DNA of 32,000 nucleotides from Cuniculiplasma divulgatum (GCF_900083515.1 NZ_LT671858.1:1260001-1292000), one strand, 5' to 3'. Counted from the first letter of the stretch, positions 6,393 to 28,410 are shown. Numbers and translations are program-made. Notes: a model not told the origin generated them from the sequence alone.

Positions 6393-6393
6393 A

Positions 6394-8115
6394 TTATTCA
6401 CCTCCTACTGCCGATGGATTTCCAAGTGGTTCTGGCTCCTTATCCGGCGATGGCTCTTCATCATTGTATGTATCTTCGAATGCGTTGTTTGTCGTTGTGC
6501 TTGGCTCATCCAGCGTGGACTTAATGAGATTTGCAAGGAAGAACAGCTGACCTATTCCGATAATTACTCCACCTGCGATGGCAATATCCTGATAAACCTG
6601 GAATCTTGCAAAGTAGCCGGATACGTATCTAGGCATTCCTAGAAAACCTCCTATAGTCCATCCCATTGACATTATAAACGATCCAATTGCAGTTAATGCC
6701 ATGTGCCAGGTTGCCAGGCGCTGATCGTACTTCCTACCTCTGGTTATTGTTGGCCACAACATATACACTGAAGCAAAGAGGATTCCAGTGGTTATTCCCA
6801 TGAATATGAAATGGAAGTGACCTGTTACCCAGTAAGTTCCGTGTACCTGTATATTAACCACTAGCATTGATTGCATTACACCTGTTATTCCTCCAATGAT
6901 AAAATCAAATATTCCGTTGACCACGAATAACATTGGTGTTGAAAGCCTTATTTTGTCCGCTGTCCACAGGGAAGCTATGTAATTGAATATGGTAATTGCT
7001 GACGGAATAACTACAAGGAATGAAGCTGTTGAGAAGAATAATCCCCACTGAAGACCAAATCCTGAATTTAGAAGATGATGCCCCCATACGAGTTCAGATA
7101 ATGGCATCAGTAAGGCAAGACCAATAACACCAGAGGTATAACTGTATATCTTTTTTCCCGTGAACTTTGGTATAATTTCGTAAATCAATCCAAATTCTGG
7201 AAGAATTGCAATATAAACAATCGGATGTCCCCATATCCAGAATAGTTCTGCAAATGATAGTGGAGAGCTTGCTCCTGCTACACCTGTGAAGAATATAGGA
7301 TTGAAGAAATCATAGAAGAGCATTACTAAAGCTGACATTAGAAAAGGTGCCGACGCAAGGAACATTAATAGTGTGAATAGAACGCTCCAGGCAAATAGTG
7401 GCATTTTTGTAAGTGGTACGTTGTCTCCACGATCCATTATGATCATTCTTATCACAACTATCGCAGCAATTGTTATGCCGATGAATATCATTTCCAGACC
7501 TATAACAGCCAGCCAGTTGTAAGCTCCAGCTCCGTAAGGGTTCAACTGAAGAGCAAGTGGAGGGTAAAAATACCATCTTGTGGATGTTCTTGATAAAAGT
7601 ATGAATACACCTCCGAGAAGATATATCCAGAATGCAGTGGATGAAATTGACCCATATTTATCAGCCTTTACCTTTAGGAAAGAAGGCAGCAAATAATAGG
7701 CTATTCCCATTGCCCCCCCAAGTGCCCACATGTATATCATAAGTATTGAGTGTTCTGTTGTCAGAACGTCATAAAGCACTTCTCTTCCTGCAAAAAGGGT
7801 TGGATTTGGCTCAACCAGACTTACTCTCATCAGTAGCCCAAAAGATCCTGCAATGAAGAAGAATACAATTGCGCTCATGATATATCTCATTCCAATGCTC
7901 TTTGAGTCATTCAGAATAAAATTGTTTGGTGATAGGAAACCCCCCTTCCTTTTATTTTCTCTAAGATATGACCCATAGTCGTAATAATTATTTTCGTTTG
8001 CTGCAACATCCGCCTCTGTTTTTGCATTCAGGTACTTGTAATACATGAAGAAAAGAATTGCAAAACCTATTGAGAGTATTAAGGAAAGTTCAACAAGAAG
8101 TGTAGTTGATGACAT
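6394..8115 (-). CDS. Heme-copper oxidase subunit I (573 aa)
   Basis: CuB/crosslink motif WIWGHPIVYIAILPEFG, the HH pair in LVWGHHLLNSG, and heme ligands in VHGTYWVTGHFHFIFMG and TTEHSILM. At least 12 TM helices. Ile occupies the position of the D-pathway Glu of GHPEVY, as in B-family (ba3/SoxB-like) oxidases. Confidence 0.95.
   Translation of the reverse strand: MSSTTLLVELSLILSIGFAILFFMYYKYLNAKTEADVAANENNYYDYGSYLRENKRKGGFLSPNNFILNDSKSIGMRYIMSAIVFFFIAGSFGLLMRVSLVEPNPTLFAGREVLYDVLTTEHSILMIYMWALGGAMGIAYYLLPSFLKVKADKYGSISSTAFWIYLLGGVFILLSRTSTRWYFYPPLALQLNPYGAGAYNWLAVIGLEMIFIGITIAAIVVIRMIIMDRGDNVPLTKMPLFAWSVLFTLLMFLASAPFLMSALVMLFYDFFNPIFFTGVAGASSPLSFAELFWIWGHPIVYIAILPEFGLIYEIIPKFTGKKIYSYTSGVIGLALLMPLSELVWGHHLLNSGFGLQWGLFFSTASFLVVIPSAITIFNYIASLWTADKIRLSTPMLFVVNGIFDFIIGGITGVMQSMLVVNIQVHGTYWVTGHFHFIFMGITTGILFASVYMLWPTITRGRKYDQRLATWHMALTAIGSFIMSMGWTIGGFLGMPRYVSGYFARFQVYQDIAIAGGVIIGIGQLFFLANLIKSTLDEPSTTTNNAFEDTYNDEEPSPDKEPEPLGNPSAVGGE
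6398..6406 (-). promoter_or_regulatory. Shine-Dalgarno sequence AGGAGGTGA inside the 3' end of the oxidase subunit I gene, serving the sulfocyanin gene
   Basis: The reverse complement of 6398..6406 is AGGAGGTGA, a 9-nt match to the complement of the canonical 16S 3' end (..GAUCACCUCCU). A TTG codon follows after a 5-nt spacer. Confidence 0.55.
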
Positions 8116-8594
8116 TACTTAACCACCGTCAAATATCCTCTCATGAGGTAATGATCATATCCACAGTACTCCACACATTCGAATATAAATACACCCGTAT
8201 GAACTGGTGTGAATGTTATTGTATTGTTTTGACCAGGTACTGCATAAATCTGGATGTCGAACTGAGCTATGTAAAGATCGTGTATAACTGCAAAATGATG
8301 AGAACCTTTCGAAGAACTCACAATTAAGGTATATGTTGTATTAACATGTATTGTCAATGAATCAGTACAGGTATGCGTCCCAGTGGCGTTTTCCTTTGTA
8401 AAGACCCATGCCCACTGCTCTCCTGTTACATCAATAATATGATTATTAGGATTTATGTTCGTGTGAGGCGTTTCCTTAGTGGCTATTGAGAAAGCAGGTA
8501 AGCCTGTGGTATAAATATTTAAGCCTGCCGCTGCCCCTAGCACAACCAATACACCTATAAGCCATAAAGCTTCAATTTTCATTTTCTTATTCAT
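8115..8594 (-). CDS. Heme-copper oxidase subunit II (CuA cupredoxin, 159 aa)
   Basis: One N-terminal TM helix plus a cupredoxin domain. Complete CuA motif CVEYCGYDHYLM (C-x-E-x-C-G-x2-H-x2-M) and upstream His in GSHHFAVIHD. It overlaps subunit I by 1 nt (TAATG) and the upstream small gene by ATGA. Confidence 0.85.
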   Translation of the reverse strand: MNKKMKIEALWLIGVLVVLGAAAGLNIYTTGLPAFSIATKETPHTNINPNNHIIDVTGEQWAWVFTKENATGTHTCTDSLTIHVNTTYTLIVSSSKGSHHFAVIHDLYIAQFDIQIYAVPGQNNTITFTPVHTGVFIFECVEYCGYDHYLMRGYLTVVK

Positions 8595-9408: not shown

Positions 9409-10023
9409 TCAAATAAATCCATGACCCAGAGAGACAAGAAAGGTAACTGAGAAAGCAAGCTCAATTATGTATATGTAAAAGTTCCATTTTAGGATACTGT
9501 ATCCCGGTAGTGGGGGAACTGGCAATGAAGAAAAGACCGCAACCATTAAGCTTGAACCACTAATTATAATAAATATTTCACTCAGAGTACCAGAGCTAAT
9601 GAATGAGAAGGCTGATAGAAGGGCTCCAAGGACAATATTCATAAGGGGAGAACTAAGAGCTATTTTTCCCTCAATTTCGTTGTTGACTGAACCTATGATC
9701 CTGGTGCACCCTGGGAGTGATATAATAAAACCAAATATGGAAGTAACTAGGGCAAATATAATGCCTGAGGTAAACAGAGTAAAATTTACCCTATATCCAT
9801 ACCTTTCAGAAAAAAAACTCATGCTGCCATAGCTTAGTCCTATTGCAATTAATGAGGAAAGGAATCCAACAGGAAGCAGCAGAAACAGGAATTTTTCTGG
9901 GGAGTAACCTGATATTATACGTCTATAGGCAATGCTGAGAGCTAAACCAAGTACAATGAATGAAATCAAGAAATCTTCTTTCGCGGAATGATGCTGCCTG
10001 ATGTTGAAATTCAGGATGTCCAT
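9409..10023 (-). CDS. Membrane protein resembling a catalytically inactive site-2 protease (peptidase M50-like fold, 204 aa)
   Basis: About 6 TM helices. AVFSSLPVPPLPGYSILKW (nt 9481..9540) resembles the M50 motif FNLLPIPPLDG..IL, but with Pro in place of the zinc-ligand Asp. At the position expected for HExxH it reads LGLALSIAYRRIISGY (LALSI at 9931..9945). Its start overlaps the stop of the upstream 1213-aa gene (TAATG). Confidence 0.5.
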   Translation of the reverse strand: MDILNFNIRQHHSAKEDFLISFIVLGLALSIAYRRIISGYSPEKFLFLLLPVGFLSSLIAIGLSYGSMSFFSERYGYRVNFTLFTSGIIFALVTSIFGFIISLPGCTRIIGSVNNEIEGKIALSSPLMNIVLGALLSAFSFISSGTLSEIFIIISGSSLMVAVFSSLPVPPLPGYSILKWNFYIYIIELAFSVTFLVSLGHGFI

Positions 10024-13000
10024 TAAGCAAACCCACCATCAAGACTCTGCACCGCTGCCTTGAGTTTCAATGCCCCCCTTATTCCAAGATTGAATTTTAC
10101 GCTATATACAAATGGATTGGAATAGGGCATAGAAGCAGCCTGCTGTAATAATTTTATTGTAAGTGGGTCCTTTGGAACCTGACGAACCTTGAAGTGATAA
10201 TACGAGTCATCAACGTAATCCTTGATCATCTTAACCAGTTCTATATCTTTTGAACCATTACCAAGAAAGAAAATTGGTAATGTTAATTCTTCAACTGTAG
10301 TTATTCCGGTCTTTTTGTAAATGTTCTTCATTATTCTACATGATTCCTGCTCGAGATATTCCATATCAATACCCTCAAAATTCGAGGGTGCATTCAGAAA
10401 TTCATATATTTCATCAATCATGTTCACCTTTATCTTTGTATACATAACTGCTTCCCTTTTGTCTAGAAACTTATTATGCTTTATACAGGCCTTCATCAAT
10501 CTTTCAGAAAGAATAATTATTTCTGCCCTGTTTTCTGTGTTCTTCAAAATGTTCATTAGATCGGTGAACTTTTCCTGGGTAATCGTTTTCTGATGCTCTC
10601 GCGATAGTAGATTTTCAGCTATATCAAAATTTTTTGTATTGATTAGAGTGAGTGCCACTGTTTCCGTTGAGTCTGCGTTTAATAGATCAGGGAACATTTC
10701 ATAGAGCTTTAATACGTCTTTGTAAAGACCATTGTTAAAATTTATTCTTTCCATTCTAGCAAGAACTTCAATTTTATCTGTTCTTTGAGTGTTCAATTTC
10801 AGGTACTGGAAACAATCAGTATTTGCCTCCTCAAATTTACCGGCCTCCGCTAGCTTTTCCATTAGAACCGTTATTATCCTTACATCTGCAGGGTTATTCC
10901 TGAAAAGCATGCGCAGTATTTCCAGACTATCGTTGCTTTTCTGTTCAGATATCATTCTCGAGGATATATCAAGTCCAAGACTTGTATTGCTTGTCTTCTT
11001 GAGAAGAGAGATCAATTGATTTTTAATTATCCTGTTTTCCCAGTATTTATCAACTATATTCTCCAGAACAGCCTCCATTGGTTCATCGATTTTTCCAATA
11101 CCCTTAATGGTGTTTGCAAGTTTTTCGACGTTTCCAGATGCCTCATATAGTTTTAGAGTGAATGCTGACTTATTTTTTAGTTTTTCAATAAAAATTTCGG
11201 CTTCCTTGAATTTACCCTGTTCTAATAATGATTCTACAAGTCCACCAGTAGTTTCCTCCCTAAATTCTTCCTGAAGGCTCTTTCTAAAGAAATGTTCTGC
11301 TGACACAGGGTCCTTATTTACGAGGTAATAATCTCCAAGCATCGAATTTATTCCTGCAGGTAATTTTAGAGCTGCATACTCGTTTATAACACTATCCAGT
11401 TCTTCCTTGCTTCCGAAATCTTTCAAATCGATGATATAATTGATTTTATCCTGTTCCTCGCTCGTTCTCATTTTGCAGATTTTACTATCGAGGTTGATTA
11501 TATCCAGCGTGTTATTCTCCCTCTTTCTGAACTTTCTGAGCACCCTCAATGCCTGCAGATTTTCAGTTCCAGAGAACTCTAGTAGATCGATAAAATTTAG
11601 TAATTTTGTCTCATCTATCTTTGATAATCTGTCGTATATTGATGCCCATGGAACGTGAAGTCCACCTCCACTGTTGACTATTTCTTCAGTTTCTCTTATG
11701 ACACTCTCAGCATCCATATCTTCAAGCCTCACCTGTAACAATAAAGCCCGGAAAGGGCTGGCCGAAAGTTGATTGTATGCAGATTCAAGTTTGCCTATCT
11801 TTCCCTTGGTCAGTTTTGCGTTATCCTCAGCCAGCATTGAATAAAAAGTAGTATATGGATCCTGATCCTTTATGACATTGAGAAGTATCGAGGATGCCTT
11901 ATCATATTTCTTTTCCATTAATAAAATATTGAGTCGTGGATAATTGTAAATATTAATATCCTGATCAGGATTTATTCCATGTTGAGAAAGTATAAGATTT
12001 ATTTTTGATTCAGCTTCTTCATACCTTATTGTGTCAAGATGCTTCCATAGTTCATTTAACCAAATAATATTGTTAAGAACTTCTCCTTCTATGAACCCCT
12101 GAATTGCAGCAACATCCTTCTCTTTAATTGTGTTACCGTAGACATAATCTCTTATAATTTCTAGATAAGACCTCATCTGAGAAGATAATCTGCCACTAAT
12201 TGCGGAATAGCTTGACCATCTTTCGTTAGTTCTCATTGAGCCCAGTAAAGCACTATGAATTTTGTCGTTTACGTACTGAAAATCTATTAGAGATAGCGAA
12301 TCAATGGCTTCGCTTATTCTTCCAGTTTCAATATTTGAGAGTAATATAAATAACAGTATTTCCTGATTGTTTCTGTCTATGTTTTGTATATTGCTTATTT
12401 CCAGTATTTTATTCCACAATTTTTTGTTTTCAAGTTCCCTTAGTACTGTTACGATAAATGCAGAATCTTCAGGCGATTCTTTTATATATTTTATACATTT
12501 TTGGAAATATTCATTATCCTTACCTTCCTGTTTCGATATCTCTGCATCAAGCTTAAGCCCCAACCTGGAGTTTAAGGTTTCTCCTGTTGCCCTTGTAAGT
12601 ATGTTTTTTGCCTTTTTGGAGTTACCTTCAAAGAGGTACAGCTGGGCTATGTAAAGTATGGATTTTTGTGAAAAATCCTGATTTGAGCCAAGAGATTCAA
12701 TATAATCCAGTGCCTCTCTGTAATTTTTCATTTTCACACATGCTTCTACGAACGATTCTTCCAGCTGTTTTGTTGATCTTAAAAGGCTTTTTCTCTTTGC
12801 CAGGAATGAAACTATTAACTCCCATTCGCCTAACTTTCTCATTGCTTCAACATATAACTCTATGGCTTCCTGATTATTCTGAGATACTGAGATTACCCTT
12901 TGTAGTATTTCCATGGCCTTTTGGTATTCACCAACTTTAATGAAAAGAGAAGAAAGCCGGATAAGAGAACCTTCTTCTTTGAAATTATCTATATCTACCG

Positions 13001-13664
13001 TTTTCAGCAGTGAAACCAGAGAGGGTGTTTCCAGATTTAAATCGAGAGCTTCTAGATAATCGAGTATATATTCAGTATTTGTAGGATCTGCGATGGTAAT
13101 AAGTTTTAGAAATTTCAAAAGTTCTCTCTTTCCATGACTCGTCCTGTAATTTTTTGTGATTTCCTTATTTATAACATATGAATTATTATCTATGTACTTT
13201 CTGAAAAGATTTTCGTCAAAAATACCATTAGCAGAAAGTAGAAGTGCAGCGTAATCCCAAAGGTTTGTAAGAGATGCTAACTCATTTACATTATCTATAA
13301 TATCCTGAGAATTAAATAATTTTATATTTGATTTTAGATATTCCTTAGCTAGATCTGTGTTCTTCTCATTTACCAGCGCTTTGGTGTAAAAGGATTGGAT
13401 AATTTCGCTATCCTTGTTTGCAAGATAAAAATATTTGTATATCTTAGATTCCCAAACATGCATATTTACCCAAAGTTCCCTAACGACAGTGTCAATTTTT
13501 GCCTTAATCTCAGCGTCATTTTGAATAAGAAGTATATAATCAGGAACCTGCAGGACCTTTGTCAGTTTAGTCAATTGTTCCTGTCTTTCGGCTACATCTT
13601 TCGAGTCCAGAAATCTGTCAATTATCTTGTTTAGATTTCTTTTCGAATCATCGCTTTCCAACAT
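10023..13664 (-). CDS. Giant all-alpha TPR-like repeat protein (1213 aa)
   Basis: Uninterrupted ORF with an ATG start. TPR-like helical hairpins recur (VGEYQKAMEILQRVI, MKNYREALDYIESL, EGNSKKAKNILTRA, EKKYDKASSILLNVI, EQGKFKEAEIFIEKL, EAGKFEEANTDCFQYL). I see no TM segment, Walker A motif or enzymatic motif. Confidence 0.7.
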   Translation of the reverse strand: MLESDDSKRNLNKIIDRFLDSKDVAERQEQLTKLTKVLQVPDYILLIQNDAEIKAKIDTVVRELWVNMHVWESKIYKYFYLANKDSEIIQSFYTKALVNEKNTDLAKEYLKSNIKLFNSQDIIDNVNELASLTNLWDYAALLLSANGIFDENLFRKYIDNNSYVINKEITKNYRTSHGKRELLKFLKLITIADPTNTEYILDYLEALDLNLETPSLVSLLKTVDIDNFKEEGSLIRLSSLFIKVGEYQKAMEILQRVISVSQNNQEAIELYVEAMRKLGEWELIVSFLAKRKSLLRSTKQLEESFVEACVKMKNYREALDYIESLGSNQDFSQKSILYIAQLYLFEGNSKKAKNILTRATGETLNSRLGLKLDAEISKQEGKDNEYFQKCIKYIKESPEDSAFIVTVLRELENKKLWNKILEISNIQNIDRNNQEILLFILLSNIETGRISEAIDSLSLIDFQYVNDKIHSALLGSMRTNERWSSYSAISGRLSSQMRSYLEIIRDYVYGNTIKEKDVAAIQGFIEGEVLNNIIWLNELWKHLDTIRYEEAESKINLILSQHGINPDQDINIYNYPRLNILLMEKKYDKASSILLNVIKDQDPYTTFYSMLAEDNAKLTKGKIGKLESAYNQLSASPFRALLLQVRLEDMDAESVIRETEEIVNSGGGLHVPWASIYDRLSKIDETKLLNFIDLLEFSGTENLQALRVLRKFRKRENNTLDIINLDSKICKMRTSEEQDKINYIIDLKDFGSKEELDSVINEYAALKLPAGINSMLGDYYLVNKDPVSAEHFFRKSLQEEFREETTGGLVESLLEQGKFKEAEIFIEKLKNKSAFTLKLYEASGNVEKLANTIKGIGKIDEPMEAVLENIVDKYWENRIIKNQLISLLKKTSNTSLGLDISSRMISEQKSNDSLEILRMLFRNNPADVRIITVLMEKLAEAGKFEEANTDCFQYLKLNTQRTDKIEVLARMERINFNNGLYKDVLKLYEMFPDLLNADSTETVALTLINTKNFDIAENLLSREHQKTITQEKFTDLMNILKNTENRAEIIILSERLMKACIKHNKFLDKREAVMYTKIKVNMIDEIYEFLNAPSNFEGIDMEYLEQESCRIMKNIYKKTGITTVEELTLPIFFLGNGSKDIELVKMIKDYVDDSYYHFKVRQVPKDPLTIKLLQQAASMPYSNPFVYSVKFNLGIRGALKLKAAVQSLDGGFA

Positions 13665-16285: not shown

Positions 16286-16933
16286 ATGGCAAGGTTGGGA
16301 ATTTACACCCTTGATTTCAGGTTCTATTATAGGGTGCTTCATCTTTTAAAAGAATGGAATGTGCCTTTTGTTTCCATAGAAAAACCTAATGATATACCTT
16401 CAGATGTGCCGGTTGTGCTGAGTTCTGTTGATGATATTGATATTCAATTTGAACAAATAAGAGATAACGATGCAATGAGAGCTATAAGACGCGCAATACC
16501 ATATCTACTGGATAAGAAATTATTTAATGAGATATTCATAGGAATTGATCCCGGGCCAAAGCCAGGTGTGGCTGTGCTGGCAGATAGAGTTTTAATCGAA
16601 GCTTTTGAACTTGGAGATGTTTTTTCTGTGGCTGAAAATATAGAAAATATAATAATGGGATATAACACCCACTTTATGTCCATAAGGATAGGAAATGGTG
16701 ATAAACCAAACAGAGAGAGGATTATCCAGGAACTGAAAAATGTAGATGTGCCAATTGATATTGTTGATGAAGGTGGTACGAGTATGCCTCATAAAACTCA
16801 TGATAACGTAATCTCTGCTGCAAGGATAGCGAATATAGAGAATTTTAACAAAGAAAAGGTTCAAAGAATAAAGAAAAGTAAAAGAAGAACACAAATAGAA
16901 AGAGAATTTGTAACAATTAAAGCTTTTTTATGA
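16286..16933 (+). CDS. Predicted RNase H-fold nuclease (YqgF/RuvX-RuvC-like core) with an ~85-aa N-terminal extra domain
   Basis: The motif order matches YqgF/RuvC-like resolvase-fold nucleases: IGIDPGPKPGVAVL (nt 16541.. for GIDPG), MSIRIGNGD, IVDEGGTS (compare DERLST) and HDNVISAARIA (compare DS.AA..IL). This is a by-eye alignment only. Confidence 0.5.
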   Translation: MARLGIYTLDFRFYYRVLHLLKEWNVPFVSIEKPNDIPSDVPVVLSSVDDIDIQFEQIRDNDAMRAIRRAIPYLLDKKLFNEIFIGIDPGPKPGVAVLADRVLIEAFELGDVFSVAENIENIIMGYNTHFMSIRIGNGDKPNRERIIQELKNVDVPIDIVDEGGTSMPHKTHDNVISAARIANIENFNKEKVQRIKKSKRRTQIEREFVTIKAFL

Positions 16934-17815
16934 TTATTTTTTAGCAATCTTTTTTGGTTTATCTTTTCTATTCTTCCATTTGGGTTGCTTTGTACCCCTT
17001 CCTCTGCCTGAAGAGAGAACAAGAAAAACCATGAATATGATTACTATTCCTGAAATATAATATATCCAGCTATAGTTTGGTGGAGATCCATAGAAGAATT
17101 TTGATGAGTAAGAAACAGAAACACCATTTTTATAAGAGGCAGCATTGAGAACCTTCACTTCAAGTGTATTTACCTTGCCATAGTCCAGAACGTTGGAACT
17201 GACAGTTATATTTAGCTTTTCTTTTGAATAGGGAGTAAGCTTACTGATTGTGTCTGTTTTGAATGTTGCTCCGTTTATTACAAAACTGATAGTAACGTTA
17301 TAATAAGGAATGTAGTTAGAATTATATACCTCTGCATACAATCTCACAGGAGCATAGACATTTACGTGGAATTCGGATGTATAATTGACTGGGGTGCCAT
17401 AAAATGAAGCGGTCAGATAGATTGATCCATATATTGTCTGGTTATCTGCCTCAGGAGCTGTGATATTAAATTCGAAATATCCACTTTTCGAACTCTCATG
17501 TGTTGAGTTGAGTGGAGACATTCCTTTATCATAATTTGCTCCAAGATATAACGTGGCTGTGTAATTGGAATAGCCTGAAGTTGCATTTACAAACATTGTA
17601 AAATGTTGTCCCTCATAAACTGCAGAAATTGGTGATAATACCGCTGAGAATCCGTTAGTTGAAGTATATATTTTGTCTTGTTTAGCAGAAATTCTTTGAT
17701 AAGAACCATTGTTTTGGTGTGAAATTGTTGAATTTTGTGAAAGAAATGTTGATGGAACAGCTGTGACTATCAGTGTAAATGCTATTAAGATTATGATTAG
17801 TAATTTCTTATTCAT
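16934..17815 (-). CDS. Secreted/membrane-anchored beta-rich protein, probable N-glycoprotein (293 aa)
   Basis: N-terminal signal/anchor (KKLLIIILIAFTLIVTAV), an ectodomain rich in N/S/T/Y with about 11 N-x-S/T sequons (hand count), a C-terminal TM helix (IYYISGIVIIFMVFLVL) and a Lys/Arg tail. Its ATG overlaps the aglB stop (ATGA at 17812..17815). GGGGGAG lies about 10 nt upstream. Confidence 0.65.
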   Translation of the reverse strand: MNKKLLIIILIAFTLIVTAVPSTFLSQNSTISHQNNGSYQRISAKQDKIYTSTNGFSAVLSPISAVYEGQHFTMFVNATSGYSNYTATLYLGANYDKGMSPLNSTHESSKSGYFEFNITAPEADNQTIYGSIYLTASFYGTPVNYTSEFHVNVYAPVRLYAEVYNSNYIPYYNVTISFVINGATFKTDTISKLTPYSKEKLNITVSSNVLDYGKVNTLEVKVLNAASYKNGVSVSYSSKFFYGSPPNYSWIYYISGIVIIFMVFLVLSSGRGRGTKQPKWKNRKDKPKKIAKK

Positions 17816-20800
17816 TTTCTCTTTCTCCCCCTTATAGCAACTCCTGCTATCCCACCAATTACAGCTATAGCAATTATAATTATTCCATACTCAACGGTCA
17901 CAAAGGGATCACCAGTATAGTTAGATATAATACCAGGGCCTTTTGAATACACAGTTATTCCAGGTGCATCTGGAGAAGTGTAATGAATATTGACATATCT
18001 AACAACATTGGTATTTGTTAGATTTGCATTAATGGTGATATCAAAGGAAGGTGACGGAACTTTTCCTGGCTTAAAAACTACATTTATTACCTTAGTTTGT
18101 GAGTAATTCAATGCTATGTAACTAATAGTCTTCCCATTGTACTGGAAGCTAACATTCCATGAATCATGAACCAACGTTTGTATGCTGGTTGAATTCATTG
18201 AAAGGGATATGTTATCCGCGGTATTCCCCGTATTTATAAGTTTGTATGATAATACTGATGTTCCGTTATTATAACCAGGGGCAGTGTAAATCTGCTGTAT
18301 TTCAAAGTTTGCATATTTAGTTATGTTAACCTTAACGAAATCCTGCGATTGACCCCCAGAGTATTTAATTTCTATAGGTACTCTGTTGATTCCATCTGGA
18401 ACCATTGCAGTATTGTTCAACACTAACTGCAATTTTACTGAACCATTGATAGGCAAATTGTTTATTGTAGTTTTATTGAATTTCATAGCCCAGGAACTGC
18501 TCCCAGAGGAAAGTGTTATATTCTCCATCGAGTTTAAGTGATTTTTCAAAGTTATATAATATGTCACGGTGTTATATTCTGATGTTTTACTTATGGTATT
18601 TTGTGATACAGTTATATTTCCAATCAAAACCTTGCTCAGCATCAGATTAATGTCTTTCGTTGTGTTTGTAAATACAGACTTTGAAGTTTGGTATAGATAA
18701 GAGGTACTATAACCGTTCACTGTAACATTGCGTGAGATATAAGATGAGAAGGAATAATTTTCTGATGGTAAGATCAGAGGATATCCGTTCGATGTTACTC
18801 TGAATAGTTCCTTATTAAGTGTTACATTTACTGTCGTTGCCTTTTCTACTCCACTTACATAGGTGAAAAGCGATATAAAATGAGCATTTGATGCAGTTAC
18901 AGTAATATTCTCTCTGTTAATAAATGGATTCACCGTAATAATTCCGGTTCCAGCCATCATGTACTGTGATGAATATGTGTAATACGTGTAATTCCCATTT
19001 TGAAGGTCTACTGAGAAATTCCCTTTGTTGCTTGTGGTAGTCTTATCAACAAGGGATCCATTTCTGTAAATATTTACGAAAAAGCCTGAGTTAGAACCAC
19101 TCGAAACGCTTAGTTTACCCATAACATCTGTACTGAATGTTTCATTCTTTATACTGAGGGTCAGTGAAGTTGGTGCATTAAGTTGAATGTTTTTGTTTCC
19201 AGTTAGCACATATTCGCCACTATTAGTTATTAGATGGGATGTCAAATTAACATTATAGCTACCTGCTGGTAATAAATTCTTCAGTCCAGGCATCACAATT
19301 TTTTCACCATTGAAGATCAGAGTAAGACTCACTTTTCCATTTAAATTGTTTAGAATGCTCAGGTTGTACGATTGCATCAATGTTGCGGAGATCGAAGTAT
19401 TTTGTGTGATATCTACCTCCTGTATGGAACTTTTCATACTTCTAGAAATGGAGTAAACAGTGTAGTTACCAGGCAATATTTCAGTCGGATTGGTAATTAA
19501 TTTACCGCTCTTTCCGTAGATATATGCAGTGTTTACATTTACTATGGATAATGAGACTTCAGGTTTAAATGAAATGTTAAGACTCTCATTTATAGCGCCA
19601 ACAGTAAAGGAATTTGTGTAGTTAAATACAAACATATTGCCACCATTAACTTTGAATACGTAACTCCCTGATGGCAGTGTTAGTTTTGCTGTACCATTAA
19701 TTATCTGGGATGTTTGTGATGTTGTGCCTCCTATATTTATTTCACCGTTTAATGGGGAGGAACTCATTACTGGCTTGAAGTTTAAGGTCACTGATTTTAG
19801 GTTGACGTTTAGAGCTATGGCTACACTTGGAGTTAACTTGTATGAACTGGCAAAATATCCATCGCCGTATACTTTTAGTTCAAAGTTGCTTAATGAAGAG
19901 GTCTGCGTGTAGATTGAAGCATATCCTCCAGAAACATTTGCTGCTTCGAATGGCTGCTTGGCAAGTTTAAAGATGCTTATTCCCGAGTTTAGTGCTGATA
20001 AAGAGTTAAACGATGCAGATATTGCAGGGTTAAAAATCTCAACTTTTTCAACCGTAGCGTTTTGTGGTGACAAATAAATATTCTGGCTTACTGATATTGG
20101 CTCTACAATCGAAGCGTAGTAATTCTTTCCTGCTCTACTCAAAGTCTCATATATTCCATAATTATTTTCTGCAGGAAGAATGAATGTGACATTTTTCAGT
20201 GTAGTACCTTCGTACTGAAGAACATTGTTACCATAAATAACTCCTATAGATCCTGAATATTTAGAGAGATTTAGGTTATTGTTTATTATTGATGTTGCGT
20301 AACCTTTTGCGAATGATATTTTAATGACAGTTGTTTCGTTTATATTATATGATCCGAATGCCACATAATTTCCACTTGTTTTATAAATTGTATAATATCC
20401 TGGCGATACCATACCTCTAAATTCATTGGAACCTATATTGGTGAGATTAGTATAAGTACTCAAATCACCATTTTCAAGCAATGATAGATTGCCATTTACA
20501 ATTGGACCTTTTAGTAATACCGTGAGATTTACTCCTAATTGAAGATTTAACGTTATGCTCTTTGTAGTATTCAATGATGTGAAAGATACATCGTTGATTC
20601 CAGAAACCAAATTTCCAAGGCTTGCATTAATCCTATACGTGCCTGAATCTAATGCTACATATGCTTCTCCTGAACTATTGGTCAACAATTTTTTATTTCC
20701 TACCATTACAGCAGCATACGAAACGGGCTTGCCTCCAGATTGTACATTAATATTAAGCCTATTTTCGTATACGAGGAGATTTTTTGATGTACTTGATCCA

Positions 20801-23800
20801 TTGGATATGGAGATAGTGTTTACATTTTTATATACAGAGTTGTTTGAAATTACGCTAACATTGTAAGTTCCTATGGGAATGTTAACAAATTTGTAATTTC
20901 CATTTACTATTGGAGCGAGAAACACCTGTCCAGACGTAGAATTACTTATTTTGACCTTTCCGCTATTAATCTTTGTTGAAGTATACCCAGACGATTTAGG
21001 TTTTTCAATTGTAACACTACCTGAAGCTGAGGTGGGCGCCGTTACAATGTTCTTTTGAATGTAGTAATTAGGCAGTCCCGTCGTTTCATTTATTCCAATA
21101 ACTTTTCTTTCCGCCATTGCTCTGCTTATCACTACCTTTTTGGCTGTTAAAAAGTTTTGTCCCTCCAAGAATTCCTTATTTAATGCACCGTAAGAATAAA
21201 TTAATGTATCATTTCCGGGAAGAACGGTAATGTTATAGAATCCGTTCTTGTTAGTCAGAACTGTGCTATGCGGTATGTTATATTGATCATATTCAGTTAC
21301 CCTTATTCCAGGAAGTGGTATTCCACTGGGAGTTTTAACCTGACCTTCAACTATAGCTCCTGGGAAGTATCTCAGAATTGGATCAGATGACTGGATAATG
21401 GAAGATAATCCAGGGAATATAAACGCCGTTCCCTTTCCAGAATGCTCAAGAGAATATGCTTTTTGAAGCGAAATTATGGAGAAGTCATTTGGATGACTCG
21501 AATAATTAGTATATGGATTGTAAGGCACTCCTTCATAGCATATTTCAAAATTACTCATGTTAAATGCTGGTTCCATTGTGTACCGGCTACTACCATATGA
21601 GAGACCTGGGATTCCATTGGTTTGACCGACAGCAGATGGTGGAAGACCGACCAGTGCTTTGTATATGGTGGTGTTGTAAAATGCTGGTGTATAACCCAGC
21701 TCATATGATGTGACAGTTGCAGTTACAGGCGTTTCGTTAAGAGGGAATGTCCCGTTTGTGGTAACTGCATAAATCTGATAATACTCATATGGAACAATTG
21801 CTCCAGATGAAGTAGAGTAGGCCGGTGTGTCAGTTAAATAAGCTGGTGCATAGAACGTTCCAGTATTAGTTGCAGATAATGGGAATAATGTGTGATCAAC
21901 CTGTATGTATTGAATGCTCCAACCTGTTGCTTGTTGTAGTTCTTGATAGAAATTAATCAGGTTCGGAAGGCTTAGCTTTGACGCGAGTTGTCCTTTTTCA
22001 AGTGCGTAATAAGCATTTGCTGATGTTATGCTTGTATTAAACTTACCATAGATCGTTGAATTATCTGCAATCCATTGTTTATAGTTCATTGGATTTTTGT
22101 AGATATTTTGAAGTAGTGTTATTTCTGAATTGTTAAAATACTGTGACAATACGCTCTGTAAAGCAGGAGAGAATTTTCCACTTGAGTTATCCAGAGATGC
22201 CTGCATAAGCCTTGATGAGAAAAGGGCCACTATTTGAGATTCATTTGTGGAAAGTAGAATTTGACCGGCTACCTGATACGCCTGTTGAAAGTCATCAGCC
22301 ACGGTTGGGTGATTTCCCTGATAAAGTTCCTGGAATCCATAATCCCACCAATTCACATAAGCTGGCTTATCTGCAAGAGAAAGGTTCGCTTGCTGCTCTG
22401 CAAGCCAGGCCATTGATAGTGATAGTGGGGAACTGCTATTTGTTATTTGGGAACCTGTTGTTCCAAAATATGCACTTTCATTAGCGAGGTATGTTGGAGG
22501 CTTTGCAAATGATGGTAGAGCTGAATAAACCTGGTGATTTACTCCAGTTGCCGAATTCACAGGGACTGCTGCTGACATTACTCCTAATCCTGAAGGTATT
22601 AATATTCCAAATACAACTATGATAACCATCACAGCCTGAAGCCATGATATGTCTCCTTTTATACCACTTCTCTTTCTAAAAGCTTTTTTAGTTCTGGTAT
22701 CGTCCTTTACATTTGAAAGTTTTAGTATATCTGCAAAGTAGTATAATAATGCACCTCCCATTATGGCATATGCTGGTGACGCAGTTATGTTAAATCTGGC
22801 AGCTGTAAAACTCATATAAATGGATACTGTGGAAAAGATGATTAAAAATGCCAGAGAGTCAGTCTTTTCCTTGATGAATTTGTAGATAATGAACATGAAC
22901 CCCCCTATACCTACTACAAACTGGGCTACACCAAAACCTCCAATGTATTGGCCAAGTGCTGGAGCTTGAGCCTCCGCTATAGTTGAATATAGCTTTGTTT
23001 TTATAAAATACCCTTCACCGCTTATGATTTCTGTATAGATATGAGGAGATAAGAAATACATCCCTCCGATAAAAGCTGATACAGTCAATACAAGCACAGG
23101 GATAGCAATTATCCATGGTTTTCTTCCTACTATGCCTATCAGAGCCGCAATAAAAATCATTCCTACTCCAATAAGTAGAGGTGGCACATACCATATAGCT
23201 GGGGCATTGTTTGCGGCATAATAATAATACCCACCCATGGCAAATGACAAAAATACAAATATTATACTTATGTAAAGAAGATAACCAGTGTTCCTCGAGA
23301 GAAAGAGATTTATTAATAATTGTGCCACTACATAAATGGTAATAATTGCCAGTATGTATGCATGACCCTGCCATGATAACATGAGAGCACCATAGGAAGC
23401 GCCTGCGAACAAAGCGTAAAATGTTGTCTTTTTATTTGATTTGACGTAGTTTATTATGCTGGAATAATAGTTATTTACTTTCAATAGACTTCCTTCTATT
23501 ATCCTGTTCTTATTGGCATAATGAACGGCTCTTTCAAAGAAATAAATAGCAAAAAATGCGAATATAAGCTCTGGAGTATGCATTCTTCCATCAGAAAGGA
23601 TACCTGAGGTCAGATTACTTGGCATAAGTGTGTATAAAACTGCACCTATCATTCCGGCTTTTTTACCAAGTATACTCTTTCCAAGCAGATAAACTGGAAT
23701 TATAAGAAGAGCACCAAACACTGCATCGAATTCCATGAATGAGTAATACGCTGCGTGTAAAGCACCTCCTAATATTGGTGCGGTAATAGTTGCAACAAAT

Positions 23801-24099
23801 GCTATCATCCAGTGGAAAAACAATGGTCTTGGATCTCCAGAGCCTATTGGATAGTTTAGGCCACTGGTGTGTAGCAGAGAAACGTGAGTTGTTAGTATGT
23901 GTATTATTATATAATAATTAAAATAGGGATCACTTCCACCAGAGAAATTCGCATATCCGTTTAAGAATGACTGTCCCCACATATAATAATTAGACAGAAA
24001 CATATAGAGTGAAAACAGCAACAGGACTCCTGCGAACTCCCAATTACGGCTGAACCAGCCTTTAAATTTTTTTATAGATTCAATTTCCTGGAGTTCCAT
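17812..24099 (-). CDS. aglB: Oligosaccharyltransferase AglB (STT3 family) fused to a very large C-terminal surface-domain array (2095 aa)
   Basis: The N-terminal ~560 aa are polytopic, with the first-loop motif GGSDPYFNYY. The STT3 catalytic signature WWDYG is at aa 584-588 (nt 22336..22350). The ORF then continues without a stop through ~1180 aa of beta-rich repeats to a terminal TM helix plus RGRKRK. Confidence 0.85.
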   Translation of the reverse strand: MELQEIESIKKFKGWFSRNWEFAGVLLLFSLYMFLSNYYMWGQSFLNGYANFSGGSDPYFNYYIIIHILTTHVSLLHTSGLNYPIGSGDPRPLFFHWMIAFVATITAPILGGALHAAYYSFMEFDAVFGALLIIPVYLLGKSILGKKAGMIGAVLYTLMPSNLTSGILSDGRMHTPELIFAFFAIYFFERAVHYANKNRIIEGSLLKVNNYYSSIINYVKSNKKTTFYALFAGASYGALMLSWQGHAYILAIITIYVVAQLLINLFLSRNTGYLLYISIIFVFLSFAMGGYYYYAANNAPAIWYVPPLLIGVGMIFIAALIGIVGRKPWIIAIPVLVLTVSAFIGGMYFLSPHIYTEIISGEGYFIKTKLYSTIAEAQAPALGQYIGGFGVAQFVVGIGGFMFIIYKFIKEKTDSLAFLIIFSTVSIYMSFTAARFNITASPAYAIMGGALLYYFADILKLSNVKDDTRTKKAFRKRSGIKGDISWLQAVMVIIVVFGILIPSGLGVMSAAVPVNSATGVNHQVYSALPSFAKPPTYLANESAYFGTTGSQITNSSSPLSLSMAWLAEQQANLSLADKPAYVNWWDYGFQELYQGNHPTVADDFQQAYQVAGQILLSTNESQIVALFSSRLMQASLDNSSGKFSPALQSVLSQYFNNSEITLLQNIYKNPMNYKQWIADNSTIYGKFNTSITSANAYYALEKGQLASKLSLPNLINFYQELQQATGWSIQYIQVDHTLFPLSATNTGTFYAPAYLTDTPAYSTSSGAIVPYEYYQIYAVTTNGTFPLNETPVTATVTSYELGYTPAFYNTTIYKALVGLPPSAVGQTNGIPGLSYGSSRYTMEPAFNMSNFEICYEGVPYNPYTNYSSHPNDFSIISLQKAYSLEHSGKGTAFIFPGLSSIIQSSDPILRYFPGAIVEGQVKTPSGIPLPGIRVTEYDQYNIPHSTVLTNKNGFYNITVLPGNDTLIYSYGALNKEFLEGQNFLTAKKVVISRAMAERKVIGINETTGLPNYYIQKNIVTAPTSASGSVTIEKPKSSGYTSTKINSGKVKISNSTSGQVFLAPIVNGNYKFVNIPIGTYNVSVISNNSVYKNVNTISISNGSSTSKNLLVYENRLNINVQSGGKPVSYAAVMVGNKKLLTNSSGEAYVALDSGTYRINASLGNLVSGINDVSFTSLNTTKSITLNLQLGVNLTVLLKGPIVNGNLSLLENGDLSTYTNLTNIGSNEFRGMVSPGYYTIYKTSGNYVAFGSYNINETTVIKISFAKGYATSIINNNLNLSKYSGSIGVIYGNNVLQYEGTTLKNVTFILPAENNYGIYETLSRAGKNYYASIVEPISVSQNIYLSPQNATVEKVEIFNPAISASFNSLSALNSGISIFKLAKQPFEAANVSGGYASIYTQTSSLSNFELKVYGDGYFASSYKLTPSVAIALNVNLKSVTLNFKPVMSSSPLNGEINIGGTTSQTSQIINGTAKLTLPSGSYVFKVNGGNMFVFNYTNSFTVGAINESLNISFKPEVSLSIVNVNTAYIYGKSGKLITNPTEILPGNYTVYSISRSMKSSIQEVDITQNTSISATLMQSYNLSILNNLNGKVSLTLIFNGEKIVMPGLKNLLPAGSYNVNLTSHLITNSGEYVLTGNKNIQLNAPTSLTLSIKNETFSTDVMGKLSVSSGSNSGFFVNIYRNGSLVDKTTTSNKGNFSVDLQNGNYTYYTYSSQYMMAGTGIITVNPFINRENITVTASNAHFISLFTYVSGVEKATTVNVTLNKELFRVTSNGYPLILPSENYSFSSYISRNVTVNGYSTSYLYQTSKSVFTNTTKDINLMLSKVLIGNITVSQNTISKTSEYNTVTYYITLKNHLNSMENITLSSGSSSWAMKFNKTTINNLPINGSVKLQLVLNNTAMVPDGINRVPIEIKYSGGQSQDFVKVNITKYANFEIQQIYTAPGYNNGTSVLSYKLINTGNTADNISLSMNSTSIQTLVHDSWNVSFQYNGKTISYIALNYSQTKVINVVFKPGKVPSPSFDITINANLTNTNVVRYVNIHYTSPDAPGITVYSKGPGIISNYTGDPFVTVEYGIIIIAIAVIGGIAGVAIRGRKRK
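17815..21363 (-). other. C-terminal extension of AglB: tandem ~70-80-aa beta-sandwich modules, two CARDB/NEW3-like modules, and a TM anchor (17815..17895)
   Basis: The signature 'LPxGxY' recurs: LPGIRV../VLPGNDTLIY (from aa ~913), IPIGTYNVSV, LDSGTYRINA, VSPGYYTIYK, LPSGSYVFKV (aa ~1475), ILPGNYTVYS (~1542), LLPAGSYNVN (~1610), LQNGNYTYYT and LPSENYSFSS. Near the end are modules of the form YKLINTGNTADNISLSM...WNVSF...VINVVFKP. The final 27 aa are VEYGIIIIAIAVIGGIAGVAIRGRKRK. Confidence 0.6.
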
Positions 24100-26115: not shown

Positions 26116-26595
26116 AATGAACCGCCATTAAATATGTTTCATTAAGTTTATTCAGTTTATAAATATTTGTCCTAAAAATCTCTACACACGTTGAGAATAA
26201 ACGTTAACAACCTTACCTAAAAAAGCTTTATCATACCATTTTATTCAATTAAAATATTAAAAGAACTCAACTTTTAACAGTTGTTAAATCCCCTTTTTGT
26301 AGTTCTAAGAGTGAAATAAACAGAACGACTTACAGTAATATCAATAAGCAAAAAGCCCTTTAAATTTCATTATATAATAGAGATCTGATGTGATTTTATC
26401 CTAGGACATTTTATCCAAAAATATCTTTATATTGTACAGAATAAATAAAAAGATTTGACCCAATTAAACCCATTGTTAATAAAAAATAGACATATAAGCT
26501 GAACCATATTCCGATAAAGTAGTTCCCAAAACTACAAAACTCTTTTAATATTGGAATGTCTACAATAGAAATAAGGTGAAAAAAAATTGATTGCA

Positions 26596-28410
26596 ATGGA
26601 AGAAAGGAATAAATATCCCGAAGTCAGATTTGCCAGTGACTTTGAGATAAGCAAGAATGCACCGTTCAAGACCGTCGATGAGTTTATAGGTGCCATGAGG
26701 AACCTTATCTCAGATGACATGATGCTAATAAGGGTTACAGAAAGCTTGTGCCCAATATGTGTTGATGATGAGAAATTCGACCAGATGAGAATTCCAGCCA
26801 TAGTTTATGAAAATGCTGGAGAAGTAAAGTTAATAAAGGAATGCGCTGAGCATGGAATAACAAAGGAGAAATACTGGGAAGATTACGATATGTACCAGGA
26901 AGCCAAAAAATGGCAGGATCCCGGAGTTAAGATATTAAACCCACACGTTGCATACCTTGAGTCAAAAATAGTTTGTCCTACACACTGCGGACTTTGCGTA
27001 AAACATAAGTCACATACTGGACTCGGAAATGTAGTAGTTACAAACAGGTGTGACCTTTCCTGCTGGTACTGTTTCTTCTATGCAAAAGAGAATGAGCCAA
27101 TTTACGAGCCATCACAGGACCAGGTCAGAATGATGCTAAGAAGGATGAGAAATGAAAAACCAGTAGGAGCTAATGCAGTTCAAATAACAGGTGGAGAACC
27201 AACAATCAGAGACGACATACTTGATGTGATCAAAATAGCCAGAGAAGAGGGGTATGAACACATACAGTTGAACACGAACAGTGTAAGAGCAGCCTTTGAC
27301 CCAGATTTCCCGAAGAAGATAAGAGAAGCTGGTTCCAACGTAGTTTATACGAGTTTTGATGGACCGACCCCAAGATCAAACCCAAAGAATTTCTGGGAGA
27401 TTCCGGCCGCATTACAGAATTACAAGAATGCTCCAATGGGAGTGGTTCTGGTTCCAACAGTTATAGGCGGAATAAATGATATGTACCTTGGTGATACAAT
27501 CAGATTTGGTCTTTCTAACATCGATTCGGTTAGGGCAGTAAACTTCCAGCCAGTAAGTTTGGTAGGAAGAATGCCAGACAGAATGAGAGAAAAACAGAGA
27601 GTCACCATACCAGGATGCATAAAGAAGATTGAGCAACAGACTGATGGTATGATCGGAAGAGAAGACTTCTTCACAGTTCCTTCTACTACAAAGGTTTCAA
27701 ACTTTGTTGAGCAGCTAAAAGGAAAGGATATGTACAAACTTTCAATACATTTTGCCTGTGGAATGGGAACTTATCTCTTCAAGGAAGGAGACAAGATTAC
27801 TCCAATAACCAGATTCATAGATGTAAGAGGAATGTTCGAGTACATTGGTGAACTTGCGGATGATATAAAGGATTCATCATTCAAGACTGTTAGGAAAGTA
27901 ACTTCAGCAGCAAAACTGTTAGCCAGTCTCAAGAAATTCGTGGACTATGAAAAGGCACCGAAGGATTTCAGTATAAAGGACATGGTATATAACGCATTTA
28001 CTGAGGGAGATTACCACGGATTAAAGGCTTTCCACTACAAGAGTATGTTCATAGGATTCATGCACTTCATGGACCCATACACATATGATGTGGACAGAGT
28101 TGAAAGATGCGATATCCATTATGCAATGCCTGATGGAAGGGTTGTTCCATTCTGTGCTTTCAATGTTATACCTGAGCTCTACAGAGATGCAACGCAGAGA
28201 AAGTATTCAATTCCTGCTAAAACATATGAAGAGAGAACGGGAAAGAACCTGAAGAAGGAAAAGTACTTCAGGGAGTACACACTGGAAGAAAAGAAGTCTA
28301 TACTAAACTTCTACGAGAAGAGCATAGGCAGGAAACTTTCACAGGATGAGATTGGACTCAATCTCAACGAAGCCATACCAGTGATATCTTCTGACAAACC
28401 AGAAGATTAA
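26596..28410 (+). CDS. tes: Radical SAM enzyme, probable tetraether lipid synthase (Tes / GDGT-MAS family)
   Basis: Radical SAM motif CDLSCWYC (27049..27072) and a second CX3CX2C, CPTHCGLC (26974..26997). The N-terminus carries CPIC...C..H, a rubredoxin-like Cys3His pattern, and there are C-terminal Cys residues (CDIHY...FCAF). The ORF-track start at 26587 is TTG. ATG at 26596 with AAGGTGA upstream is more likely. The family assignment comes from recollection of the Tes/MJ0619 architecture. Confidence 0.65.
   Translation: MEERNKYPEVRFASDFEISKNAPFKTVDEFIGAMRNLISDDMMLIRVTESLCPICVDDEKFDQMRIPAIVYENAGEVKLIKECAEHGITKEKYWEDYDMYQEAKKWQDPGVKILNPHVAYLESKIVCPTHCGLCVKHKSHTGLGNVVVTNRCDLSCWYCFFYAKENEPIYEPSQDQVRMMLRRMRNEKPVGANAVQITGGEPTIRDDILDVIKIAREEGYEHIQLNTNSVRAAFDPDFPKKIREAGSNVVYTSFDGPTPRSNPKNFWEIPAALQNYKNAPMGVVLVPTVIGGINDMYLGDTIRFGLSNIDSVRAVNFQPVSLVGRMPDRMREKQRVTIPGCIKKIEQQTDGMIGREDFFTVPSTTKVSNFVEQLKGKDMYKLSIHFACGMGTYLFKEGDKITPITRFIDVRGMFEYIGELADDIKDSSFKTVRKVTSAAKLLASLKKFVDYEKAPKDFSIKDMVYNAFTEGDYHGLKAFHYKSMFIGFMHFMDPYTYDVDRVERCDIHYAMPDGRVVPFCAFNVIPELYRDATQRKYSIPAKTYEERTGKNLKKEKYFREYTLEEKKSILNFYEKSIGRKLSQDEIGLNLNEAIPVISSDKPED

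Follow-up and report, generated by a model that had tools for sequence, protein, structure and literature searches.

The long AglB oligosaccharyltransferase of Cuniculiplasma divulgatum and the class Thermoplasmata: a putative beta-sandwich scaffold and a probable partner subunit

The AglB locus

The 32,000-nucleotide stretch of the Cuniculiplasma divulgatum genome analysed here (NZ_LT671858.1:1260001-1292000; hereafter the window) codes for an AglB oligosaccharyltransferase (OST) of 2095 amino acids (aa). Its catalytic part continues into a long array of beta-sandwich domains that ends in a further transmembrane (TM) helix, and the gene is followed by an overlapping gene for a small membrane protein, termed here the partner (Table 1). 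The AglB open reading frame (ORF) is complete and its translation is uninterrupted, as described in the initial annotation of the sequence. The protein corresponds by exact sequence match to CSP5_1323 (SIM70570.1, WP_148689937.1, UniProt A0A1N5VD11), which is encoded on a 1.94-Mb contig and already annotated "Oligosaccharyltransferase AglB" in RefSeq and UniProt. Proteomics of C. divulgatum S5 identified it by 43 peptides (PMC7285479, Table S1); the long AglB protein is thus made in vivo.

The unusual length of this ORF, and an older G-plasma entry from a metagenome-assembled genome that is shorter (1911 aa), could suggest that an assembly or frameshift artefact joined two adjacent genes. Such an explanation has next to no probability. 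The same continuous ORF crosses the junction between AglB and its extension in 62 independent genomes, among them complete chromosomes such as that of Oxyplasma meridianum, and it is found as well on the C. divulgatum contig and on a 1.58-Mb contig of Thermoplasma volcanium. The artefact is refuted by the lengths of the orthologues, by the database identity and by detection of the protein by mass spectrometry (MS). A scan of the window with bacterial-type promoter and terminator models yielded matches at chance level, such models being uninformative for an archaeon.

Table 1. Coordinates of the AglB gene, its domains and motifs, the partner gene and the heme-copper oxidase cluster, counted from the first letter of the window
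Feature	Position (nt)	Strand	Remarks
AglB ORF	17812..24099	(-)	2095 aa, complete; stop codon 17812-17814
AglB/STT3 polytopic TM domain	22540..24099	(-)	aa 1-520; hydropathy, TIGR04154, profile match to 3WAJ
External loop 1 (EL1) motif S-D-P-Y-F	23920..23934	(-)	aa 56-60; D57 is the first catalytic acidic residue
TIXE motif T-I-A-E, external loop 5	22972..22983	(-)	aa 373-376; aligned to TIAE of Archaeoglobus fulgidus AglB
WWDYG motif	22336..22350	(-)	aa 584-588; weak alignment to A. fulgidus AglB
AglB external globular domain	21364..22539	(-)	aa 521-912; 13 sequons
D1, first CarboxypepD_reg beta-sandwich	21040..21360	(-)	aa 914-1020; Pfam PF13620, AlphaFold2 strands
D2-D11, ten tandem beta-sandwich modules	18664..21030	(-)	aa 1024-1812; transthyretin/CarboxypepD_reg-like, 68-87 aa each
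D12-D13, membrane-proximal sandwiches of another type	17974..18657	(-)	aa 1815-2042; NxGN motifs, NEW3/FixG_C/CARDB-like
Juxtamembrane linker	17908..17973	(-)	aa 2043-2064; NYTG(D/N)P sequon
Last TM helix and cytoplasmic basic tail RGRKRK	17815..17907	(-)	aa 2065-2095; hydropathy, AlphaFold2 helix
Partner gene	16934..17815	(-)	293 aa; ATG overlaps the AglB stop codon (ATGA)
COX2-like	8115-8594	(-)	heme-copper oxidase cluster
COX1	6394-8115	(-)	heme-copper oxidase cluster
Unassigned 224-aa membrane protein	within 4845-8594	(-)	heme-copper oxidase cluster
UbiA-family prenyltransferase, probably heme O synthase	4845-5726	(-)	heme-copper oxidase cluster

The AglB catalytic unit

The amino terminal part of the protein had been read as a complete AglB/STT3 unit carrying the SDPYF and WWDYG motifs, and profile searches agree with this assignment. 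The NCBIfam model archaeo_STT3 (TIGR04154) matches aa 25-630 with an E-value of 1e-47 and a score of 162.8 bits, which is under the subfamily cut-off of 450 bits. With a profile built from 26 orthologues, the TM domain of AglB-L from A. fulgidus (AfAglB; PDB 3WAJ/5GMY) is matched at an E-value of 5e-9; the family profile was needed, as a PDB search with the AglB part as a single sequence gave marginal matches only. In the profile alignment the GGxDP and TIAE motifs are paired residue for residue, GGSDPYF of the window being aligned to GGNDPW of AfAglB. The WWDYG motif is aligned only in a separate stretch that is non-significant by itself, and beside it only the conserved A-D-[DN]-F-Q aligns to AfAglB. 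The external domain is matched by the carboxyl terminal domains of PDB 3VGP/3VU0 (E ~0.009), and a weak Pfam AglB_core-like match is found at aa 579-621. Hydropathy analysis delimits ~11-13 hydrophobic segments in the amino terminal domain, the STT3-type domain of this OST family (GT-C, GT66) having 13 TM helices.

The roles of the OST catalytic motifs, including TIXE, are described in PMC8342417. An alignment of 63 sequences shows their conservation in the long AglB family: G54, G55 and D57 are invariant (63/63), as are T373 and E376, while I374 is found in 60 of the 63 sequences. WWDYGF is equally invariant (63/63), together with H597, P598, A601, D602, F604 and Q605. The external domain (aa 521-912) displays a conservation of 0.45, expressed as identity to the query. 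Judging from the conserved D57, TIxE and WWDYG motifs, the AglB unit appears to be catalytically intact. CSP5_1323 is the sole protein annotated as STT3 among the rows listed of the C. divulgatum proteome tables.

The external loop 2 (EL2) site, which is aligned to D-x-H of A. fulgidus AglB, spans aa 169-178 (nt ~23566-23595). Its residues R172, H174 and E177 are each present in 31 of the 63 aligned sequences, which are Thermoplasmatales-like; the other Thermoplasmata have aspartates at two such positions.

The carboxyl terminal extension

The first domain of the extension, D1, joins the AglB part at aa 914 without a low-complexity linker. For aa 905-2095, an AlphaFold2 (AF2) model derived from an alignment of 27 sequences has a mean predicted local distance difference test score (pLDDT) of 84.9 and is all-beta apart from a carboxyl terminal helix (aa 2065-2094, model residues 1161-1190). 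The pLDDT is 86-90 over model residues 11-90, drops to 76-78 over residues 91-110, lies mostly at 80-90 in the all-beta D2-D11 region and falls below 50 in the juxtamembrane linker (residues 1143-1161). The count of ~13 domains was read from the DSSP strand pattern of the model, not from its coordinates. The sequon NYTG(D/N)P of the linker is common among Thermoplasmatales orthologues according to the alignment consensus.

The modules of the extension are tandem homologous repeats, as revealed by hhalign profile self-comparison (E-values down to 4e-31). D1 shows robust similarity to Pfam PF13620, CarboxypepD_reg (E 1e-13, 51.7 bits for a cut-off of 32.3), and this family is matched in 27/27 orthologues with a best E-value of 5e-67. 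NOMO-type Pfam domain models match 5-6 of the 27, and the SdrD_B, bMG3 and SpaA models match subsets of them. A Foldseek search of the PDB with the 1191-residue rod yielded, among the 50 matches listed, only multi-sandwich proteins, namely alpha-2-macroglobulins, complement, HYDIN-like proteins, TIE, DSCAM and SbsC; an enzyme fold or a specific functional lead is absent among these 50. The Foldseek TM-scores are low for the rod and for the partner, as expected of flexible multi-domain models. Structure and profile searches thus concur with the beta-sandwich array that the initial annotation had proposed. The LPxGxY signature attributed there to each module is less regular: the strict form [LIVM]PxGxY occurs only 3 times, although a looser GxYx[LIVFY] is found ~11 times in the extension.

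The two membrane-proximal domains D12-D13 had been described as CARDB/NEW3-like. The window sequence itself has no Pfam match in this region at E <= 1, but the equivalents of D12 in Methanomassiliicoccales pass the NPCBM_assoc cut-off (28.6 and 26.5 bits for 24.4) and that of FixG_C (40 bits), and come near to the CARDB cut-off (19.5 and 18.2 bits for 22.7). Since the orthologous module passes NPCBM_assoc/NEW3 and FixG_C, the label is reasonable and indirectly supported. Residues N949, N952, N1052, G1054 and N1055 of D12-D13 (extension numbering) are invariant or conserved in >= 90% of the sequences.

The protein terminates in ...NYTGDPFVTVEYG-TM-RGRKRK, the basic motif (aa 2090-2095) following directly the hydrophobic helix. 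A PGF-CTERM signal (TIGR04126) was not found, the entire protein having matched only TIGR04154 when scanned against NCBIfam at E <= 1, and the terminus is devoid of PGF. A TM helix plus basic tail is present at the carboxyl terminus of 7/7 distant orthologues inspected, and the arginines of the tail are conserved across the 63-sequence alignment. Both hydropathy and the AF2 helix agree with the proposal that this region is a second membrane anchor, and the topology deduced earlier, with the extension outside and the basic tail inside, holds. Because of this extra helix with its basic cytoplasmic tail, the rod is predicted to be tethered to the membrane at both ends.

The partner gene

The initial annotation, whose account of AglB is borne out, had missed the conserved gene that overlaps the AglB stop codon. 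Its product features an amino terminal signal/TM helix and two beta-sandwiches, followed by a further TM helix and a basic tail containing PKWK, and carries 11 sequons. Members of this bitopic, two-sandwich family have 237-293 aa, and the PKW of their basic tail is invariant. The gene is found directly 3' of AglB in 44 loci by tblastn. Judged by position and architecture, AglB is followed by a gene of like size and topology in a further 20 loci, Methanomassiliicoccales included; the Methanomassiliicoccales version is homologous to the partner (hhalign 99.9%, E 8e-34). The partner gene is present in every locus examined for which downstream sequence is available.

The AF2 model of the partner has a pLDDT of 80.7. 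Its last sandwich and TM helix resemble the carboxyl terminus of the AglB extension (hhalign 89.5%, E 2e-6), and a weak CARDB match is found (E 0.004). Foldseek returned generic immunoglobulin (Ig)-like/MG-type arrays, with no OST accessory subunit among the matches listed. The database homologues are all "hypothetical" or unnamed, save for one Joint Genome Institute (JGI) label. From the gene overlap and the family's constant position next to AglB, the product of this gene is probably a partner subunit of AglB.

The convergent neighbour of the partner gene (16286-16933, (+)) codes for a highly charged protein of 215 aa and is found near the partner in 49 loci. It belongs to no Pfam or NCBIfam family, and no TM segment was noted.

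Distribution and conservation across Thermoplasmata

A protein search with the window AglB identified 235 homologues. The best 120 of these are nearly all ~2050-2120 aa long at ~100% coverage, and the homologues include T. volcanium TVG1271204 and proteins of O. meridianum and Caldiplasma. A genome scan yielded 79 loci with 62 complete ORFs, all of 2022-2191 aa with extensions of 1134-1294 aa, from Thermoplasmatales (including Thermoplasma and Oxyplasma), DHVE2/Aciduliprofundum, I-plasma and Methanomassiliicoccales. A further search seeded by a Methanomassiliicoccales member gave 709 more matches, including the 2173-aa protein of M. luminyensis. Such numbers show that the architecture is not a rarity; to judge by the sequences collected, the ~2100-aa form is the standard AglB of the class Thermoplasmata.

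A search of 1.84 billion representative proteins with the extension only gave 123 matches, nearly all in proteins of ~2000-2700 aa with the match beginning at about residue 900-1100. A clear stand-alone extension protein was not found among these 123, with P0160 as a possible exception. The shorter matches inspected mostly begin within the AglB part and have no signal sequence, and for this reason look like N-terminally truncated gene calls. P0160, a JGI metagenome protein of 1593 aa, has a signal-like hydrophobic start, and its residues 306-582 match D1-D3; it may represent a rod relative that occurs on its own, unattached to AglB. Two loci carry short AglB ORFs that do not run off the locus ends, of 1425 aa in Acidiplasma aeolicum (L031) and of 1589 aa in Cuniculiplasma sp. 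KMA_Bin18 (L044). They may be frameshifts, pseudogenes or sequencing errors.

The domains of the extension differ in their conservation. D1 reaches 0.45 (identity to the query), a value equal to that of the catalytic domain, and D2-D13 have values of 0.18-0.29 with gaps of only 1-6%. Rod length and domain number are, by this alignment, fixed across orthologues. A structural role linked with the enzyme is indicated by the fixed number of domains and by D1 being conserved like the catalytic domain.

Sequons, composition and the cell surface

Exact recounting confirmed the 64 N-x-S/T sequons estimated by hand, 16 of them in aa 1-912 and 48 in aa 913-2095. The 48 sequons of the extension compare with 28.6 +/- 4.5 expected from 20000 composition-preserving shuffles (z 4.3), and the external domain of AglB has 13 for 5.2 expected by the same approach. 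A comparison with the background of the window gave 4.06 sequons per 100 aa in the extension versus 0.57 in 20 other ORFs of the window, a 7-fold difference. The extension is not almost free of charged residues as first stated, its 11.8% of charged residues being low only. The low charge and N/S/T-rich composition are common to the extension and the partner protein.

The mean sequon density of the extension is 4.7 per 100 aa in Thermoplasmatales, 4.0 in the group of DHVE2 and others, and 1.6 in Methanomassiliicoccales. In the latter, 8 of 9 sequences have 0.9-2.1 sequons per 100 aa, and acidic residues are at a normal 8.7%; these orthologues retain all domains and both anchors despite their few sequons. 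Sequon density follows lineage, not architecture, across the sequences compared, and saturation with sequons and low charge are an overlay on an older architecture in most lineages. Since sequon-poor Methanomassiliicoccales orthologues have the full architecture, glycan display cannot be the original reason for the fusion. The initial annotation viewed the protein as a glycocalyx constituent that is a substrate of its own active site. A surface role in acidophiles is plausible, but it does not explain the fusion.

C. divulgatum cells lack a paracrystalline S-layer (PMC5155288). Cryo-electron tomography (cryo-ET) of C. divulgatum and O. meridianum showed cells without an S-layer lattice, covered by a dense, unordered exterior protein layer of ~20 nm whose composition was left open (PMC12448462). 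The same study reported that NxS/T sites in the pilin of C. divulgatum bear N-glycans, and its authors found no obvious S-layer homologue in their RNA-seq data (PMC12448462). The pilin glycans bear only indirectly on the reaction of the AglB family, the transfer of a lipid-linked glycan to Asn of N-x-S/T. Of the two hallmarks of an S-layer, lattice and top abundance, neither is found for the long AglB in published data: there is no lattice and the abundance is moderate. Both species imaged, O. meridianum (L033) as well as C. divulgatum, carry the long AglB gene, which makes the rod and the partner plausible contributors to the surface coat of acidophiles.

Comparison with known systems

The window protein shares with characterised archaeal AglBs (A. 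fulgidus AglB-L, PDB 3WAJ/5GMY/7E9S; Pyrococcus furiosus AglB-L; Haloferax volcanii AglB) the polytopic TM domain, EL1, TIXE and WWDYG. It differs from them by 13 extra beta-sandwiches, a carboxyl terminal TM helix and a co-encoded bitopic partner. The excess in length over characterised AglBs noted at the outset is real, 2095 aa being more than twice the 875 aa of the A. fulgidus AglB-L chain; other characterised AglBs have roughly 600-1050 aa. AglB is described as a single-subunit enzyme (PMC8342417).

The eukaryotic OST contains ribophorin I/Ost1, ribophorin II/Swp1 and OST48/Wbp1, which have extracytoplasmic beta-sandwiches and a single carboxyl terminal TM helix beside STT3. The partner and the fused rod, including the final TM helix, are laid out similarly, which is an analogy only; unlike in the eukaryotic system, the chief "accessory" part forms one polypeptide chain with the catalytic subunit. 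NOMO (nodal modulator), a subunit of the BOS complex (PDB 9C7V chain B), is like the rod a string of CarboxypepD_reg/transthyretin-like sandwiches with one carboxyl terminal TM helix and a short cytosolic tail, and lies likewise on the extracytoplasmic side of a membrane engaged in protein biogenesis. The family profile matches NOMO2 in the PDB (E 7.5e-5), while NOMO is absent among the 50 Foldseek matches listed for the rod. NOMO is eukaryotic and carries no fused enzyme, the likeness being in domain type and layout. Archaeal S-layer and other C-terminally anchored surface glycoproteins are likewise extracellular, beta-rich and sequon-dense with a carboxyl terminal TM helix, and SbsC is among the Foldseek matches. 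Unlike them, the window protein is anchored at both ends, carries an enzyme, has no PGF-CTERM/archaeosortase signal and is of moderate abundance.

The sequence itself is not new, because public databases already contain the gene, partly annotated under AglB, GT39 and CarboxypepD_reg labels. The claim of an undescribed architecture stands to the extent that no publication describing the long AglB was found in literature searches, subscription papers on AglB phylogeny being outside their scope and a prior mention there possible. In the literature searched, the class-wide, length-conserved form of AglB, the second anchor, the partner gene and a link to the exterior layer were not found. The labels "GT39 family", "carboxypeptidase regulatory-like domain-containing protein" and "hypothetical" hide the long architecture and the partner.

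OSTs of archaea and bacteria are regarded as enzymes with one subunit, roughly 600-1050 aa long. An entire archaeal class, with the cultured Thermoplasma, Cuniculiplasma, Oxyplasma and Methanomassiliicoccus, appears to use an AglB of ~2100 aa. If the partner is a true subunit, it would provide a prokaryotic precedent for accessory OST subunits. The long AglB and its partner are also testable candidates, of matching dimensions, for the exterior layer left open by the 2025 cryo-ET study.

Proposed role and alternative explanations

The explanation that we favour, with somewhat better than even confidence, is that this AglB has a built-in scaffold without catalytic function and, probably, a partner subunit, and that the protein is a candidate for one of the components of the ~20-nm exterior layer. 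Within such an AglB assembly, the rod and the small partner would play a structural, non-catalytic part. D1 would pack on the catalytic domain of AglB and D2-D13 would form an arch or hairpin of fixed length. Ig-like domains measure roughly 4 nm each; 13 of them therefore give a contour of ~50 nm and, with both ends tethered, a height of ~20-25 nm. The last TM helix of AglB and the TM helix of the partner would return to the membrane, possibly beside the AglB TM bundle, an arrangement resembling that of the ribophorins and OST48 flanking STT3 in eukaryotes. In the acidophiles, N-x-S/T sites would have become dense in the rod, the partner and the ectodomain of AglB, which suggests that AglB itself, acting in cis or in trans, glycosylates all three. 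On this view the ~20-nm glycoprotein layer on the outside of these wall-less cells, which lack an S-layer, would in part be made up of the assembly. A more far-reaching version holds that Thermoplasmata have a hetero-oligomeric OST composed of a ribophorin-like 13-domain scaffold and a co-translated subunit of the CSP5_1322 family, which in acidophiles would be the self-glycosylating principal building block of the layer. This version is tentative and rather doubtful; were it true, the enzyme that makes the glycocalyx would be part of it, and the OST would be unlike other described prokaryotic ones.

Several observations weigh against the scaffold proposal. In the enzyme, the position aligned to the second DXD of AfAglB, in EL2, reads GRMHTPE in Thermoplasmatales, a result that depends on the alignment; the metal-binding motif may have changed in this lineage, or the alignment may be shifted. 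A clear DK or MI motif, DxxKxxx(M/I) or MxxIxxx(I/V/W), which forms the Ser/Thr pocket of OSTs, was not found when the residues following WWDYG were inspected. Domains D2-D13 evolve fast, with 17-30% identity between orders, which fits a spacer and also a merely tolerated appendage. The abundance of CSP5_1323 in the proteome is about that of the phenylalanyl-tRNA synthetase (PheRS) beta subunit and not coat-like, keeping in mind that shotgun MS under-samples glycosylated membrane proteins. The partner is not found among the rows listed of the C. divulgatum proteome tables. Among the PDB matches that Foldseek listed for rod and partner there is no accessory subunit of OST, and Pfam and PDB sequence searches gave none either. 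Binding of the partner to AglB and packing of the last TM helix on the AglB TM bundle are inferred only.

An alternative, the view of the initial annotation, is a protein that serves primarily in the coat: the extension would be a major structural constituent of the exterior layer or glycocalyx, and the fusion to AglB would mainly secure its own dense glycosylation. The 48 sequons of the extension, which exceed the background of the window 7-fold and the number expected from composition 1.7-fold, speak for it, as do the low-charge, N/S/T-rich composition shared with the partner, the anchoring at both ends, a height of the folded 13-domain rod that matches the ~20-nm layer of C. divulgatum, and the N-glycosylation demonstrated in this species (PMC12448462). 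This explanation is nevertheless unlikely: Methanomassiliicoccales keep the architecture with few sequons and normal charge, Aciduliprofundum/DHVE2-type genomes share it, the protein is about as abundant as a housekeeping enzyme, and an obvious S-layer homologue was not seen in RNA-seq data by the authors of PMC12448462.

The long product could instead be a precursor that is cleaved into a normal AglB (~900-1020 aa) and a C-terminally anchored surface glycoprotein of ~1100-1200 aa, as suggested by the modular layout only. Thermoplasma acidophilum reportedly has a dominant membrane glycoprotein of ~150 kDa. Cleavage is improbable given that no other part of the extension is as conserved and as well structured as the junction, D1 beginning at aa 914 without a linker and with a conservation of 0.45, and that the extension-only search gave no clear stand-alone form, P0160 being a possible exception. 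An equally small chance is attributed to the rod being an adhesin or binding module, directed to cell-cell contact (with ARMAN/Micrarchaeota, for example), to substrates or to minerals, and located on AglB by chance. Multi-Ig/MG-type arrays are typical of adhesins and binding proteins (the Foldseek matches TIE, DSCAM, SbsC and alpha-2-macroglobulins), and D2-D13 diverge rapidly; yet domain number and length are strictly kept across lineages of very different habitats, a recognisable binding or enzymatic domain was not found with Pfam and Foldseek, and double tethering is a poor design for reaching out.

Other genes in the window

Three further regions of the window are of note. A heme-copper oxidase cluster occupies positions 4845-8594 of the minus strand (Table 1). 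At 10023-13664 of the same strand lies a gene coding for a tetratricopeptide repeat (TPR) protein of 1213 aa, which has only 22-33% identity to its counterparts in four related loci.

The gene at 26587-28410 (+) codes for a radical S-adenosylmethionine (radical-SAM) protein with an HMPTM-type zinc ribbon. This protein is 89-98% identical in five loci (L002, L004, L006, L015 and L029) whose AglB proteins are 41-68% identical to that of the window. The difference suggests that the radical-SAM protein either is under unusually strong constraint or was recently transferred.

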